Below are positions 1-60,019 of a stretch of DNA of 60,019 nucleotides, piece by piece; the stretch's first letter is position 1; each line of letters starts with the position of its first letter. Location: the NCBI GenBank assembly GCA_034658815.1, contig JAYEFY010000048.1, positions 1 to 60,019 of the forward strand, in the 5' to 3' direction. A model generated the notes under the pieces. That model was not told the DNA's origin. It did not search any database and worked only from the letters and a program-made list of their open reading frames with translations. The position numbers and the translations under genes are program-made. Source of the DNA: Patescibacteria group bacterium. GTDB taxonomy: Bacteria > Patescibacteriota > Minisyncoccia > Moranbacterales > DUUL01.

Positions 1-81
1 TTGCTGTAGATCATTAGTCTGACCAATATAAAATTTGTCGTATTTTTTATTGTACGCAATATAAACAAAAAGGTTTTGCAT
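1..81 (-). CDS. Minimal GIY-YIG nuclease, second tandem copy (only the 5' part is in the window)
   Basis: Bases 1-127 are identical to 333-459 (332-bp offset); ATG at 81 starts MQNLFVYIAYNKKYDKFYIGQTNDLQQ and the ORF runs off the window edge. Confidence 0.85.
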   Translation of the reverse strand, partial: MQNLFVYIAYNKKYDKFYIGQTNDLQQ

Positions 82-85
82 AATG

Positions 86-155
86 TGGGCGCTGAGAGAT
101 TCGAACTCCCGACCTACTGGGTGTAAATCCCGAGTACTCGGGACTCTAACCAACT
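86..155 (-). pseudogene. tRNA-Val-derived fragment lacking the first ~12 nt, with CGACTGG replaced by the perfect palindrome TCCCGAGTACTCGGGA (128-143)
   Basis: Direct comparison with the intact tRNA at 418-491. Confidence 0.85.
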
Positions 156-161
156 TGAACA

Positions 162-413
162 TTACATATTACAGAGTTTCCTATAAAACTGTTTCGATTT
201 TTGTTTTTTAAGAAACCTTTCTCTTCTTACAGTCTCTGAACGTGAGAAAAAACTTTCATAATACAAAATTTTCCATCCACCAGTATATTTTTTTGTGTAA
301 ACAGAAAAACCAGAACAATGTTCCAGTTCTCTTTGCTGTAGATCATTAGTCTGACCAATATAAAATTTGTCGTATTTTTTATTGTACGCAATATAAACAA
401 AAAGGTTTTGCAT
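162..413 (-). CDS. Minimal GIY-YIG nuclease (UPF0213/Slx1-like), 83 aa
   Basis: FVYIAY...FYIGQT motif pair, R (QQRE) and H (EH), conserved helix E (RRERFLK); true start is ATG at 413, directly after the tRNA 3' end. Confidence 0.88.
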   Translation of the reverse strand: MQNLFVYIAYNKKYDKFYIGQTNDLQQRELEHCSGFSVYTKKYTGGWKILYYESFFSRSETVRRERFLKKQKSKQFYRKLCNM

Positions 414-417
414 AATG

Positions 418-491
418 TGGGCGCTGAGAGATTCGAACTCCCGACCTACTGGGTGTAAACCAGTCGCTCTAACCAACTGAGCCAAGCGCCC
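418..491 (-). tRNA. tRNA-Val(TAC)
   Basis: GGGCGCT/AGCGCCC acceptor stem, ACTGG-TTTACAC-CCAGT anticodon arm, GTTCGAATC T loop; CCA not encoded. Confidence 0.96.
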
Positions 492-734
492 TTGTAACAA
501 GAAAAACATAAAATGACCTACTGGGTGTAAATCCCGAGTCCTTGGGACTCTAACCAACTGAGCCAAGCGCCCTTGTAACAAGAAAAACATAAAATGACCT
601 ACTGGGTGTAAATCCCGAGTCCTCGGGACTCTAACCAACTGAGCCAAGCGCCCTTGTAACAAGAAAAACATAAAATGACCTACTGGGTGTAAATCCCGAG
701 TCCTCGGGACTCTAACCAACTGAGCCAAGCGCCC
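492..734 (-). repeat. Three tandem 81-bp units: tRNA-Val 5' half with a palindrome replacing the 5' anticodon-stem strand, plus a 17-nt AT-rich spacer
   Basis: Units 492-572, 573-653 and 654-734 are identical except one base (543); palindromes at 532-547, 613-628 and 694-709. Confidence 0.95.
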
Positions 735-758
735 TTGTAATGGGGCTTTGACCATACG

Positions 759-842
759 TGCCCCGAGAGAGACTCGAACTCTCATGCGCATAAAGCGCCA
801 TGGCCCTCAACCATGTGTGTATACCGATTCCACCATCGGGGC
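759..842 (-). tRNA. tRNA-Leu(GAG)
   Basis: GCCCCGA acceptor, CATGG-TTGAGGG-CCATG anticodon arm, long variable arm, GTTCGAGTC T loop. Confidence 0.95.
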
Positions 843-18670: not shown

Positions 18671-18784
18671 GGGATTATTTCCAAACTAGTTTTCTGCCTC
18701 GCCGAACTTACCCGTACCGAACGGTACGTTCGGACGAGCAGGCAGGCGTTGGCAAAAACTTGGAGTTAGTTTGGCGACAGTCCC
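18671..18784 (+). mobile_element. MITE-like element with an internal REP-like palindrome
   Basis: Termini GGGATTATTTCCAAACTAG / GTTAGTTTGGCGACAGTCCC; internal CCCGTACCGAACGGTACGTTCGGACG (18711-18736). Confidence 0.7.
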
Positions 18785-56875: not shown

Positions 56876-57580
56876 ATGACACGCGATGAGCTACTATCAT
56901 TAGACCCAAAAGTTTTTGATAATTTCGTATTATCTCAGGACGAAATACTATCCTGGTTTTCAACACTCAATGCTTTTTGGGAGTATAGCGGTAACCCAAA
57001 GGATCCGCACGCGAAATTAACAACAGGAAAGTGCAGCAATGGTTTTTTCGACTGCCTACGGGTGATCCAATATCTTAATCTTTCAAGAATTTTAGCTAAT
57101 CAGTTGGCTAAAAAGATCCGAAAGGTTATTGGAAATACAAAGGTAGATCGAACTATCGGGTCGCCGATGGCAGATATTGAATTTGCCCGTGAGGTCGGTT
57201 GGGCTATCGGCGCCAAGGCCAGTAATTTCGTTGAGAAAGATCCGAAAATCAAAGGCAAGATGGTCTGGGAACGGATGACAATCCCAGAGAATGAAACAGT
57301 ACTTCAAATTGAGGAGCTGACTACAACTGCCGGAACGCTTTTGTCTGTGCGGGCGGCAATTGACGAAAGCAATCCCACTCCGATAAATTGGTTGCCGGTA
57401 GTCGGCATTCTCGTGCATCGGCCGCCAAAACTTCCCGCCGGTCCTTATGATAACCGGCAAATTATATCTTTAATTGAAAAGGAAATTTGGGCTGTTGATC
57501 CGCCGTGTGAGCTTTGCAAGAAAGGATCGCCGCGATGGCGTCCAAAAACCCATTGGAAAGAATTGACAGGAAAAGAATAA
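56876..57580 (+). CDS. pyrE: Orotate phosphoribosyltransferase-like protein
   Basis: AKLTTGKCSNGFFDC, LQIEELTTTAGT (variant PRPP-binding loop), operon position after pyrF. Confidence 0.75.
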   Translation: MTRDELLSLDPKVFDNFVLSQDEILSWFSTLNAFWEYSGNPKDPHAKLTTGKCSNGFFDCLRVIQYLNLSRILANQLAKKIRKVIGNTKVDRTIGSPMADIEFAREVGWAIGAKASNFVEKDPKIKGKMVWERMTIPENETVLQIEELTTTAGTLLSVRAAIDESNPTPINWLPVVGILVHRPPKLPAGPYDNRQIISLIEKEIWAVDPPCELCKKGSPRWRPKTHWKELTGKE

Positions 57581-57599
57581 GTCACCTTGTCTGTCAATA

Positions 57600-57704
57600 A
57601 CAAAAAGGGAAGTAGCACAAACAAGCTATTTCCCTTTTTTCTTTTTTACCCTATTACTATTAAGCAAAAAGCCGAAAGTCCAAACGGACAACTAGGCTTT
57701 TATT
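57600..57704. repeat. Direct repeat copy A (terminator-like hairpin plus a GTCCAAACGGAC hairpin)
   Basis: Aligns with 58223-58320. Confidence 0.8.
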
Positions 57705-57762
57705 TCTTGGCAATGAAAAAGCGGCGCCGCAATGGGAACCGCTCGGTTTGCTAGAATGGTAA

Positions 57763-58152
57763 TTATAAATTCACGCTTAAGGCCTTCAACCTGCATATCA
57801 GATGAACTGCTTCCTTTTTCCAATAGTCTGCCCCTCCATATTCATCAGGAAAACCACCAATGTATAATGTAAGGACATCTATCAAGAAAGGTTTAAGCTC
57901 CCTGATAAATGTTAGTTTTCCTGCGTATATACCGCTCATTTGCTCTGGAAAGTAAGGACATCCAAACCGCAATTGAACACTCTCTACGCCTTCCAAAAGT
58001 CTATCTGTCCACGCGCGCTTACCTTCATCCTTCCACCCTTTAAACGCCTCGGACCAATCCCCTCGGCACATTTTTAATGCAGTTAGTAGAGCATCCTTCT
58101 CCTCTTCCACAATGACCAACTCCATTAACTCTGACTTTTGTTCTTCTGCCAT
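57763..58152 (-). CDS. Hypothetical protein (129 aa) with a possible internal duplication
   Basis: SD AAGGAGG, upstream TTGACA; halves LVIVEEEKDALLTAL...WKDE and LTFIRELKPFLIDVL...WKKE resemble each other. Confidence 0.7.
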   Translation of the reverse strand: MAEEQKSELMELVIVEEEKDALLTALKMCRGDWSEAFKGWKDEGKRAWTDRLLEGVESVQLRFGCPYFPEQMSGIYAGKLTFIRELKPFLIDVLTLYIGGFPDEYGGADYWKKEAVHLICRLKALSVNL

Positions 58153-58222
58153 AACTTTTCCCTCCTTTGTGTATTTTAACTAAATTATTGAATATACTTT
58201 ATAAAATGTCAAGCGTTTAAAT

Positions 58223-58320
58223 ACAAAAAGGGAAATAGCGCAAACAAGCTATGGCCCCTTTTTTCTTTTGTTATAAGCAAAAAGCTGAAAGTCCAAACGG
58301 ACGAGTAGGCTTTTATCTTT
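58223..58320. repeat. Direct repeat copy B
   Basis: ACAAAAAGGGAAATAGCGCAAACAAGCTAT...TAAGCAAAAAGCTGAAAGTCCAAACGGAC...TAGGCTTTTAT. Confidence 0.8.
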
Positions 58321-58328
58321 TATTTATG

Positions 58329-58474
58329 TATGCTGGGGAGGAGGGATTTTCGCCTCGTCTTCACTAAAGTTCAGACTTCGTTGTCCAGGGCAGCGCTGAA
58401 AGCTGTTCGCTTCCAGCGACACTCGCTTATCTCACTTTGTTCGATGCTCGCTTCTGCCCGTTCGAATCCCTCTC
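58329..58474 (-). repeat. Duplicated tRNA-Gln 3' end plus an inverted T-arm copy
   Basis: 58329-58348 equals 58521-58540; GTTCGAATCCCTC at 58460-58472 is inverted relative to the tRNA T arm. Confidence 0.75.
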
Positions 58475-58524
58475 TCAAAACACACAAACAAAAAACGGAA
58501 CAAGCCTTTTTTCATTTGTGTATG

Positions 58525-58596
58525 CTGGGGAGGAGGGATTCGAACCCCCGAATCACGGGACCAGAACCCGTTGCCTTACCGCTTGGCTACTCCCCA
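58525..58596 (-). tRNA. tRNA-Gln(CTG)
   Basis: TGGGGAG/CTCCCCA acceptor, ACGGG-TTCTGGT-CCCGT anticodon arm, GTTCGAATC T loop. Confidence 0.96.
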
Positions 58597-58745
58597 AGAA
58601 ATATTTTGTAAAAAACTTTGTCCCGTTTCAATCTTGACCACTCTTTTTATCCCATCCAAGCGGTCAGCTTGCCCGCCCGAACGTACCATTCGGTACGGGC
58701 GAGCCCGCCCGTCCGAAGCTTTAACGCAGGCGGGGCTACTCCCCA
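58562..58745 (-). repeat. 184-bp direct repeat, copy 1 (tRNA-Gln 5' half, upstream DNA, and a REP-interrupted tRNA 5' tip)
   Basis: Near-identical to 59097-59280 (535-bp offset). Confidence 0.9.
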
Positions 58746-59002
58746 ATGTTATTTTGTGTAAATAACTCCTTTAGTTGTTGGCGTAAAAATCTTTTTCCTT
58801 CAGTAGTTTTCAGATATCGTTCTCTTCGTTCAGCATCTTGCGATAATAAATATGCTTCGTAATGAATAAGCTTAACAGGTAAACGCTTACTTGTGAACTT
58901 TGATTTTCCAAGTTTATGTTCCTCAACTCTTCTTTTTAAGTTGCTCGTGCACCCAGTATAAATCTGCAAATTATTTAAAAGTAAAATATAAACGTAATGC
59001 AT
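58736..59002 (-). CDS. Minimal GIY-YIG nuclease, 88 aa
   Basis: YVYILL...IYTGCT, RRVEEH, RLPVKLIHYEAY, AERRERYLKT; stop codon supplied by the tRNA-derived TGGGGAGTAG. Confidence 0.9.
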   Translation of the reverse strand: MHYVYILLLNNLQIYTGCTSNLKRRVEEHKLGKSKFTSKRLPVKLIHYEAYLLSQDAERRERYLKTTEGKRFLRQQLKELFTQNNIGE

Positions 59003-59059
59003 TTTGGAATATTTGTATTTAATACCTACAGAAATTTATTGCACTACCGTAGGAACCAT

Positions 59060-59095
59060 CATGTCATTCGACATGATGCCATGTCGAATGACATG
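59060..59095. repeat. Perfect 16-bp-arm inverted repeat whose arms are themselves hairpins
   Basis: CATGTCATTCGACATG-ATGC-CATGTCGAATGACATG. Confidence 0.9.
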
Positions 59096-59096
59096 G

Positions 59097-59280
59097 CAGA
59101 ACCCGTTGCCTTACCGCTTGGCTACTCCCCAAGAAATATTTTGTAAAAAATCTTATCTCGTTTCAATCTTGACCACTCTTTTTATCCCATCCAAGCGGTC
59201 AGCTTGCCCGCCCGAACGTACTATTCGGTACGGGCGGGTCTGCCCGTCCGAAGCTTTAGCGCAGGCGGGGCTACTCCCCA
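59097..59280 (-). repeat. 184-bp direct repeat, copy 2; its tRNA half ends exactly after the anticodon
   Basis: TGGGGAGTAGCCAAGCGGTAAGGCAACGGGTTCTG, then the 59060-59095 palindrome. Confidence 0.9.
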
Positions 59281-59368
59281 AGATTATATCATTCCAAGTT
59301 TGTCGAGGTTCAATCATTTGACGGGGTAAAAATTGCTTCGTGTAGATATAGAAAGTATTTCAGTGCCA

Positions 59369-59417
59369 AGGGATCCTTCGACTTCTCCCGCTAAGCGGGA
59401 TTCACTCAGGATGACAA
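59369..59417. repeat. REP-like element related to the right part of 25792-25947
   Basis: AGGGATCCTTCGACTTCTCCCGCTAAGCGGGATTCACTCAGGATGACAA. Confidence 0.65.
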
Positions 59418-59437
59418 AAAGTAATATGAAGTGAAGA

Positions 59438-60019
59438 TTACTTTTTGGTAATTTTCCCTCCAAACATTTTCATCGCATCGTGGAGAATGTTGTGCTCTTT
59501 GTTGTCTGTGTTTTCGGGAAAATTCATTGATGCACATTCTTTTTCGGTGACAAATGATACTTTCAGCGACGTATCGGTGATTGTATCAACCACTTTTTGA
59601 ACTGTCAATCGATTGTTCAGCTCGGACAGCCTCTCTTTATAAAAGTCGTATTTTGTTTTTATATACAGTGTATTATTCATTATTCCGCATGGAGTACAAT
59701 TTTCCAAAAATGCGTGGATTGAATGATTGTGGGGTTTTACATCTTCTATTATCTTTGACCAATATCCCAGAACATCTTCAAAAGCAATGTTCGAACTTTT
59801 ACTTTTTGAGATATCTGATGGCGGTTTTTCCTGATCATCTGTTTTTTCTTCTACTTCGATTTCGGCCATTGCTTGTTCAACGGAAGTAACAGTCGTTTTC
59901 GGTTCTTGAAGAGTATTTTTTTCCGGAGGGGCCTCTTTTCTTAGAGCTTCCGCTTCGGACGGTTCGCGATCCGGACTATTTCGCATGCCGGCGGTTTCTG
60001 TTGCCGGAGCCGGTACGGC
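59438..60019 (-). CDS. dnaX: DNA polymerase III gamma/tau, C-terminal part (gene starts beyond the window)
   Basis: Pro/Ala/Glu-rich linker, then WSKIIEDVK...HAFLENCTP...FYKERL...AMKMFGG; frame is open to the window edge. Confidence 0.75.
   Translation of the reverse strand, partial: AVPAPATETAGMRNSPDREPSEAEALRKEAPPEKNTLQEPKTTVTSVEQAMAEIEVEEKTDDQEKPPSDISKSKSSNIAFEDVLGYWSKIIEDVKPHNHSIHAFLENCTPCGIMNNTLYIKTKYDFYKERLSELNNRLTVQKVVDTITDTSLKVSFVTEKECASMNFPENTDNKEHNILHDAMKMFGGKITKK

Follow-up and report, generated by a model that had tools for sequence, protein, structure and literature searches.

A gene encoding a small GIY-YIG nuclease lies between two direct repeats of the 5' region of a tRNA-Gln gene, close to one end of a 60,019-nt stretch of a Patescibacteria group bacterium (GenBank assembly GCA_034658815.1, contig JAYEFY010000048.1, positions 1 to 60,019), and is the subject of this analysis; the whole of this stretch is referred to as the window. 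All coordinates given for the tRNA-Gln locus are window positions and its features are read on the minus strand. The upstream neighbour is the 3' part of dnaX (59438..60019), corresponding to the C-terminal domain of DNA polymerase III tau/gamma, for which there is a weak Pfam DnaX_C match and two homologues, P0121 and P0122, that are DnaX. A TATAAT sequence (59283-59288) stands directly upstream of the first repeat, R1 (59097-59281), which ends at the last anticodon base (CTG) of a tRNA-Gln copy and consists of a tRNA-like tip (TTGGGGAGTAGCC, 59269-59281), a GC-rich nested hairpin of 63 nt (59206-59268), AAGC (59202-59205), a leader of 70 nt (59132-59201) and tRNA-Gln positions 1-35 (59097-59131), the last three nucleotides being the anticodon CTG. 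At this break in the anticodon loop there is a pair of 18-nt hairpins (59059..59096), hp1 (CCATGTCATTCGACATGG, 59079-59096) and hp2 (TCATGTCGAATGACATGA, 59059-59076), arranged as TG, hp1, the spacer CA, hp2 and TG; folded as DNA, the pair gives z = -6.4. The TGGTTCC that follows hp2 (GTTCC at 59052-59056) resembles a degenerate continuation of the tRNA (TGGTCCC), and a 45-nt spacer separates it from the start of the nuclease open reading frame (ORF; 58736..59002, 88 aa, catalytic domain only), which is the only gene between the repeats. The second repeat, R2 (58562..58746; tip 58734-58746, GC hairpin 58671-58733, AAGC 58667-58670, leader 58597-58666), continues into an intact tRNA-Gln(CTG) (58524-58596; ARAGORN; Rfam tRNA 62.1 bits), which we take as the regenerated target and the first 35 nt of which form the 3' end of the repeat. 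Further downstream is a scar (58331..58472) in which a T-arm-like sequence, GAGGGATTCGAAC, is followed by a 107-nt insert and by CGAAAATCCCTCCTCCCCAGCA, a copy of tRNA positions 57-73 with trailer.

Much of this arrangement had been outlined in an initial annotation made from the sequence alone. The order of parts that it gave for the repeat, from a double hairpin resembling repetitive extragenic palindromic (REP) elements through AAGC and upstream DNA to a tRNA 5' half ending at the anticodon, is the order described above, and the palindrome that it placed ahead of the nuclease is the pair of hairpins. The repeats were found where it had put them around the GIY-YIG cassette, although each is 185 nt long and not 184, and they differ, as it had said, at few positions: the two copies, 535 nt apart from start to start, show 9 mismatches, of which the GC hairpin has five and the leader four, the tRNA-derived sequence being free of them. 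That the 52 positions of tRNA origin have no mismatch and the remaining 133 have all 9 (hypergeometric p about 0.05) raised the idea of selection on the tRNA part of R1, which we set aside, a p of about 0.05 being too weak for use. The sequence TGGGGAGTAGCC occurs four times in the window, against 0.07 occurrences expected by chance. The claim that the gene borrows its stop codon from tRNA sequence also stands, since the last four codons of the ORF, ATT GGG GAG TAG, fall in the R2 tip; these bases correspond to tRNA positions 1-10, with the stop TAG at positions 8-10, and their source here is the R2 tip and not the working tRNA. A sequence that resembles a promoter, TTGAAA-17-CAAAAT, ends six bases ahead of the tRNA start in both repeats (59166-59138 in R1, 58631-58603 in R2). 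The leader of both repeats (59191-59202, 58656-58667) also holds CTGACCGCTTGG, which matches the reverse complement of the tRNA D-arm CCAAGCGGTAAG at 11/12 positions and which might, in a transcript, base-pair with the 5' part of the tRNA.

The nuclease matches the Pfam GIY-YIG profile PF01541 (E = 6e-13) over profile positions 1-74 of 78, and its residues 1-70 make up the catalytic domain. Residues Y5, Y15, R25, H29 and E61 are invariant in 32 relatives, and the AlphaFold model (pLDDT 88) has the order beta-beta-alpha-beta-alpha-alpha; by motif and by fold the protein is a member of the GIY-YIG superfamily. Matches in PDB by sequence were limited to the UPF0213 proteins 1ywl and 1zg2 (E = 1e-6), and Foldseek ranked 1zg2 and 1ywl first, followed by the Slx1 nuclease domain (7cq3, 6seh; TM 0.58-0.64), with I-TevI weak. 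The protein is a bare catalytic domain of the Slx1/UPF0213-like branch; neither Pfam nor NCBIfam revealed any further domain in its 88 aa, and with these libraries it shows no DNA-binding module of the kind that marks a homing endonuclease. There are 302 close relatives at 60-83% identity, mostly from Patescibacteria genomes (candidate phyla radiation; CPR) such as Moranbacteria, which are annotated as 'GIY-YIG nuclease family protein' or, wrongly, as 'excinuclease ABC subunit C', and a profile search of 1.84 billion entries gave 2,868 cluster representatives at E <= 1e-10. Matches among 50,697 phage records were only 35-40% identical. For the tRNA-Gln-linked protein NCBIfam, PHROGs and PADLOC yielded no informative family, and defence-system models gave no match above noise.

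The upstream gene, dnaX, provides the synteny anchor by which an empty allele was recognized. Only two homologues of the DnaX C terminus of the window were found among 5.8 billion proteins, with 49% and 43% identity, and the 49% homologue lies on the locus L115, where dnaX is followed by one tip, a shorter GC hairpin, AAGC, the leader and an intact tRNA-Gln (69/73 identical to that of the window), and then by the same T-arm remnant with a homologous insert. L115 is without the nuclease ORF, the hairpin pair and the second repeat. It follows that the cassette is younger than the tip, the GC hairpin, the leader and the downstream remnant, the scar beyond the tRNA being present in the empty allele too, and the ancestral locus, as L115 shows it by comparison, would have run from dnaX through tip, GC hairpin and leader to tRNA-Gln. 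An empty allele in relatives, with one repeat and no nuclease, had been set beforehand as a test of the proposal in the initial annotation that an insertion duplicated its target while an intact tRNA was regenerated; L115 is such an allele, and the same rule applies family-wide. Besides L115, dnaX stands upstream of tRNA-Gln in L116, where the tRNA is tRNA-Gln(TTG) and the ORF is again missing, and in L102 and L108, which like the window carry the cassette, with the break in the T-loop and the anticodon loop, respectively. A second kind of empty syntenic locus is L097, where ftsX and tRNA-Gln are adjacent without the ORF, and which is one of six loci found in a metagenome scan with the FtsX of L028 and L008. 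The presence or absence of the gene at otherwise corresponding loci is the pattern of a free-standing homing endonuclease, the empty alleles here coming from related, not identical, organisms. The T-loop of the tRNA-Gln(CTG) in L097 (2969-3041) reads TCCGAAT and not the near-universal TTCGAAT, which could reflect a resistant target or a sequencing error.

Association with tRNA genes proved to be a property of the family as a whole. The first three homologues lie in differing contexts (PilZ, an unknown gene, ftsEX), yet each is directly 5' of a tRNA-Gln(CTG) and has a broken copy of the same tRNA upstream. A scan of one genome per species (185,579 species genomes) yielded 456 relatives, the best 80 loci of which were analysed together with the window and three loci examined earlier, giving 88 ORF copies at 83 loci in genomes of CPR, Planctomycetes-Verrucomicrobia-Chlamydiae (PVC)-group bacteria and Cloacimonadota. 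In this set 72/88 ORF copies are no more than 45 nt from a tRNA gene on the same strand, and 20 anticodon types are represented; the remaining copies are mostly inner members of tandem arrays or stand at contig ends. Two arrangements recur, in which most ORFs have a partial tRNA copy on the side away from the tRNA. In type A (55 copies) the ORF ends within 45 nt upstream of the tRNA, and the copy upstream of the ORF starts at tRNA position 1, stops in the T-loop (about 55-57), in the anticodon loop (34-37, the group to which the window belongs) or in the D-loop (22 or 12), and is usually 100% identical to the adjacent tRNA. In type B (17 copies) the ORF starts within 45 nt downstream of the tRNA and is followed by tRNA sequence again, copied from about position 55 to position 76. 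In the window the duplication starts from the tip, and elsewhere the start lies 0-13 nt ahead of tRNA position 1. A stop codon inside the downstream tRNA was seen in 20/57 type A ORFs, in 11 of them exactly as the TAG of positions 8-10, and the type B stop is often within hp2 (GAATGA). The borrowed stop codon seen in the window is a family trait, and duplication of the target with one intact tRNA kept is the rule across the family.

At the break itself an 18-nt hairpin pair is almost always found, with the consensus CCNNrTC-ATyC-GAyNNGG for hp1 and CCNNrTC-GrAT-GAyNNGG for hp2, so that the T-loop cases read ...GGTTCG, hp1, CG, hp2, CGAATCC..., and the junctions can be written as XY|hp1|revcomp(XY)|hp2|XY. 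The 2 nt before the pair equal the 2 nt after it in 48/61 pairs, being mostly CG but also CA, CT and, in the window, TG, and the spacer pairs with the 3' flank in 47/47 distinct pairs of the gap-free alignment, double changes included (flank/spacer combinations CG/CG, CA/TG, CT/AG and TG/CA). The stems covary, with many different base pairs, while the loops are fixed (ATYC and GRAT). Because the hairpins had been picked by a palindrome filter, the 98-99% stem pairing is partly circular, and we counted as evidence only the variety of the stems and the unfiltered flank and spacer columns. The duplication of 2 nt at the break is as expected of a 2-nt staggered cut, such as the 2-nt 3' overhangs of the phage enzyme SegB discussed below. 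The T-loop core recurs as TCGAAT at the centre of hp2, and 4-12 nt of local tRNA sequence continue after the pair, ahead of the ORF region. Measured against an insertion sequence, the pair has a 2-nt duplication around it and its hairpins are inverted relative to each other, yet both hairpins stand on one side of the ORF. Single hairpins were also found in the D- and anticodon loops of pseudo-copies, and tandem arrays of the hairpin pair with the tRNA 3' part but no ORF occur in L087, L045 and L025. In the 60-kb window the only hairpins of the family are the pair at the cassette.

The cassette varies in number and position between and within genomes. In near-identical strains of one population, the same flanks enclose a single cassette in L102 and L103 and two (383-bp unit) in L104, L024 has three in tandem, and several genomes carry copies at different tRNAs. 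In a neighbour-joining tree, which is short and weakly resolved, copies from the same genome fall in different clades, and sequences from CPR, Victivallales, Lentisphaerae, Kiritimatiellae, Verrucomicrobiota and Cloacimonadota are interleaved. Over the CPR, PVC and Cloacimonadota genomes the proteins share 55-83% identity, and the 55-70% found between phyla favours horizontal transfer. With 20 anticodon types, varied contexts, copy number that differs between near-identical strains and a second copy at tRNA-Val in the window, the gene is not a conserved single-copy repair gene of this position, which was the alternative that the initial annotation had named against itself. In L008 (3318-4817) and L028 (2820-4349) the gene that comes directly after the cassette-bearing tRNA-Gln, on the other strand, encodes a large serine recombinase, and this tRNA may double there as the attachment site of an integrative element.

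The second GIY-YIG system of the window occupies positions 1..734, likewise on the minus strand (tblastn E = 2e-7; Pfam GIY-YIG E = 2e-12). Three tandem units of 81 nt (492-734), each composed of tRNA-Val positions 1-24, a 16-nt hairpin (TCCCGAGGACTCGGGA) standing in place of positions 25-31, and positions 32-48, precede an intact tRNA-Val(TAC) (417-491). The nuclease gene, ORF2 (413-162, 83 aa, Pfam E = 2e-12), begins three bases after this tRNA, and beyond it are a tRNA-Val fragment with the hairpin (85-161) and a repeat of the start of ORF2 that runs off the window (82-1). ORF2 is 36% identical to the tRNA-Gln-linked nuclease, a divergent relative, and has weak 'homing endonuclease' and 'group I intron endonuclease' matches in family libraries. 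A 209-aa ORF listed at 162..791 is a read-through artefact of the tRNA-Val array.

Several other repeats were noted in the course of the analysis. Downstream of tRNA-Gln, the scar at 58331-58472 can be read as a T-arm-like stem, GAGGGATTCGAA...CGAAAATCCCTC, that encloses the 107-nt insert and is followed by the tRNA 3' end; the insert has the conserved core GCTTTCRGCGCTRCCCTGGACAAsGAA, is kept in L115 (1232-1372), has a longer form in L001 (3383-3600) and is without an Rfam match, and a similar motif follows the tRNA in L017. It could be another element inserted in a T-loop, or a small RNA. GC-rich nested hairpins (CCCGCC...GGCGGG, 30-63 nt) recur in several lineages within pseudo-tRNA tips, where the D-loop would be (window 59206-59268, 58671-58733 and 18696-18752; L028 2318-2357; L100; L102; L108); the copy at 18.7 kb is not adjacent to a tRNA, the L115 version is shorter and lacks the inner hairpin, and these hairpins look like a separate element of the REP or miniature inverted-repeat transposable element (MITE) kind. 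At 57600-57708 and 58223-58321, direct repeats in two parts (about 110 nt, 85-90% identity), composed of terminator-like hairpins, flank a 129-aa ORF (57763-58152) with no family match, another gene between repeats beside the tRNA-Gln locus.

A full-text search of open-access papers and preprints found no account of a small tRNA-linked family, of the partial tRNA duplications or of the hairpin pair, and within that literature the loci described here represent a widespread family of tRNA-gene-invading mini-cassettes that is apparently undescribed. Free-standing GIY-YIG homing endonucleases that target tRNA genes are known; what seems to be new, when the two are set side by side, is a small cellular family with a hairpin pair. 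Judged by analogy, the closest known relative in kind is SegB of phages T4 and T6, roughly 220 aa long. This GIY-YIG homing endonuclease, encoded within a tRNA cluster, recognizes the T-loop motif GGTTCRANTCC in many tRNA genes within a recognition site of 27 bp and leaves 2-nt 3' overhangs (PMC2330249). Its nuclease activity, together with homologous recombination, gives rise to tandem 718-bp repeats of tRNA-Tyr and segB, the junctions of which show microhomology of the tRNA 5' end with the segB 3' end (PMC13096335). The likeness lies in a GIY-YIG gene among tRNA genes of many isotypes and in tandem repeats of tRNA and nuclease, tRNA-coding DNA being the known target in the case of SegB. The differences are that SegB is a phage protein whereas the window protein, at 88 aa, is catalytic only, UPF0213/Slx1-like and chromosomal in CPR and PVC bacteria, and that neither a hairpin pair nor standing partial tRNA copies with loop breakpoints have been reported at SegB loci.

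Other known systems share single features with the cassette. UPF0213/YhbQ-type proteins (1zg2, 1ywl) and the Slx1 nuclease domain have the same size and fold and provide the best sequence and structure matches, but a search of the same literature found no tRNA linkage or mobility reported for UPF0213/YhbQ-type proteins. Slx1 cuts branched DNA and needs its partner Slx4. Islands and prophages inserted by tRNA-targeting integrases resemble the cassette in being bounded by a partial tRNA copy and in restoring the tRNA on insertion, and integrase crossover sites favour the anticodon loop and the T-loop, whose flanking stems give symmetry. The cassette differs in having no integrase, an insert of about 350 bp, usually a duplication of the 5' part of the tRNA, and a hairpin pair at the junction, and an integrase-mediated island was rejected as an explanation because the 88-aa ORF is the only one between the repeats and there is no recombinase gene. 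REP doublets (REPINs) mobilized with REP-associated tyrosine transposases (RAYTs), and the attC cassettes of integrons, offer a parallel in short covarying hairpins tied to one small enzyme gene and in promoterless cassettes and tandem arrays. Their enzymes are HUH or tyrosine recombinases and not GIY-YIG proteins, and REPINs scatter between genes whereas the cassette hairpins are found only at tRNA-derived sequence; the REP/RAYT explanation was likewise dropped, the enzyme being GIY-YIG and not an HUH (Y1) transposase.

Our current reading, to which we assign a probability of about 0.6, is that a selfish free-standing cassette of homing type, about 350 bp long and made up of the hairpin pair and a catalytic-only GIY-YIG gene, has colonized tRNA-Gln and spreads by break repair. 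The word homing rests on the anatomy of the locus and on the analogy with SegB; the likeness to homing drawn in the initial annotation may be kept to that extent, while nothing that we found supports the target-primed, reverse-transcription route which it mentioned alongside. By the same analogy we infer that the nuclease cleaves DNA. It would make a 2-nt staggered break in the loop-coding DNA of a tRNA gene, at TTCTG^G in the present case and at TTCG^AA of the T-loop in most relatives. The left end of the break, bearing the tRNA 5' part, would then be repaired on a cassette-bearing template, so that the hairpin pair and ORF are copied in, and since the ORF 3' end carries tRNA 5'-end sequence (TTGGGGAGTAG), this homology might let the growing strand switch to an intact copy, for example on the sister chromosome, along which copying would continue until the right end is rejoined. 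A recipient like L115 would offer two landing sites, the true tRNA 5' end or the older tip. Landing on the former would give the form seen in L028 and L008; in the window the switch would have landed on the older upstream tip, because of which the duplication would be 185 nt and not about 35 nt long. The upstream tRNA copy, interrupted by hairpins, would no longer be a target, the ORF is probably transcribed from the duplicated leader and its promoter, and recombination between the repeats could produce tandem arrays, circles or loss of the cassette. Movement of a fixed unit by simple cut-and-paste was considered as well and is ruled out by the local target bases between the hairpin pair and the ORF.

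A number of points weigh against this homing-type cassette. With 88 aa and no DNA-binding domain, the protein leaves site finding unaccounted for, and an enzyme specific for the T-loop would threaten most tRNA genes of the cell. In classic homing the occupied allele is immune; here the hairpin pair breaks up the upstream copy, but 143 nt downstream of the ORF there is a tRNA-Gln that is unaltered and presumably cleavable, and this intact adjacent tRNA is a departure from the classic case. The model does not explain the origin and role of the conserved hairpin-pair sequence. As 4-12 nt of local target follow the pair, the cassette boundary is no simple cut site, and as the repeats are about 5% diverged, the insertion is not recent. 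Strictly speaking, loss of the cassette rather than its gain is also conceivable, the empty allele coming from a fairly distant relative (DnaX C terminus 49%). Lastly, the placing of the nuclease under the upstream signals of the tRNA, as first proposed, agrees with the TTGAAA-17-CAAAAT found in both repeats, but this is agreement at the level of a consensus; the promoter matches are weak, and matches of this type are not commoner than in shuffled sequence.

The main rival to a homing-type cassette is a structure-guided, transposon-like mechanism, in which a true transposable element recombines at the hairpin pair and the small Slx1/UPF0213-like nuclease is structure-specific. The nuclease would nick the loops of a DNA cloverleaf or R-loop on one strand and the boundary of the tRNA or transcript on the other; the partial tRNA duplication would be a long target-site duplication, and hairpin units would move alone as non-autonomous elements. 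We regard this as unlikely, although a good deal speaks for it. Covarying stems with conserved loops (ATYC and GRAT) point to a signal read on a folded strand and not to a duplex binding site, spacer and flanking dinucleotide are reverse complements, breakpoints occur in all three loops of the cloverleaf, and single hairpins are found in the D- and anticodon loops of pseudo-copies. The arrays of L087, L045 and L025, in which hairpin pair and tRNA 3' part recur with no ORF, would be units of the non-autonomous kind, the nearest folds are those of structure-specific Slx1 nucleases, and the duplications have their start close to that of the tRNA (0-13 nt ahead of it) or, in the window, at the tip. 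Yet we know of no GIY-YIG transposase acting alone, the hairpins stand on one side of the ORF only, local target bases come between pair and ORF, and the tandem arrays are explained by ordinary recombination alone. A further reading, less likely than not, is that the family is a novel type of mobile element, both minimal and autonomous and about 350 bp in size, present in cellular genomes of several phyla and of a distinct hairpin-guided kind. The bare nuclease of such an element would find tRNA genes by their structure (DNA cloverleaf loops or an R-loop) and by the T-loop-mimicking hairpin pair (GTCGAATGAC compared with GTTCGAATCC), and its insertion would create XY|hp1|revcomp(XY)|hp2|XY and a long partial duplication always sparing one working tRNA.

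Domesticated function and purely passive recombination are less likely than the transposon-like mechanism. A resident gene doing the host some service at tRNA loci, such as amplification of tRNA genes or the protection of these genes, as frequent sites of integration, from incoming elements, with the fragments as by-products of occasional breaks, would account for an ORF that is intact and highly conserved between flanking repeats that are about 5% diverged, and for dnaX-tRNA-Gln loci that carry the nuclease in all three of the lineages concerned; there are also the serine recombinase genes beside tRNA-Gln in L008 and L028, and amplification driven by SegB is of benefit to its phage (PMC13096335). 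The patchy distribution (456 matches among 185,579 species genomes), the empty syntenic loci, the many different tRNAs with multiple divergent copies per genome and the lack of any match above noise to defence-system models make such a role improbable. A 535-bp unit moved by host homologous recombination only, through Campbell-type integration of a circle with a tRNA segment on it and through unequal crossing-over, with a nuclease that has no role in targeting, is very improbable: direct repeats of 35-185 nt can indeed support excision, integration and change of copy number, and the structure is that of a circle integrated through its repeat, but the loop-specific breakpoints, the 2-nt duplication and the conserved hairpin pair are left unexplained, as are the spread to 20 anticodon types with little shared homology and the constant nuclease cargo. 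Contigs often end at loci of this type, as they might if the structure were an artefact of assembly, and in bacteria the anticodon loop of a tRNA gene can contain a group I intron with a GIY-YIG gene, from which an endonuclease encoded in an intron of a split tRNA gene might be imagined; both ideas are scarcely credible and are effectively refuted. The two repeat copies differ at 9 sites and the same architecture is present in independent assemblies from many projects, and, as regards an intron, the tRNA is present contiguous and uninterrupted, and Rfam gave no intron or ribozyme match at E <= 1 over 57000-60019, where only the tRNA and chance-level matches were found.

If the proposed reading is correct, nucleases of the GIY-YIG type that target tRNA genes would extend from the phage enzyme SegB to chromosomes of the ultra-small CPR bacteria and of the PVC group, in a form stripped to about 85 residues. 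Candidate substrates for the questions of site finding and of the role of the hairpins are now defined in the empty allele, the occupied allele and the hairpins themselves. The cassettes would also account for pseudo-tRNA fragments, tandem tRNA pieces, contig breaks by tRNA genes and the mis-annotation of 'excinuclease ABC subunit C' in metagenome-assembled genomes. For the organisms that carry them, it would mean that an essential tRNA gene present only once in a tiny genome can withstand invasion, each surviving insertion bringing with it a duplication that restores the gene.

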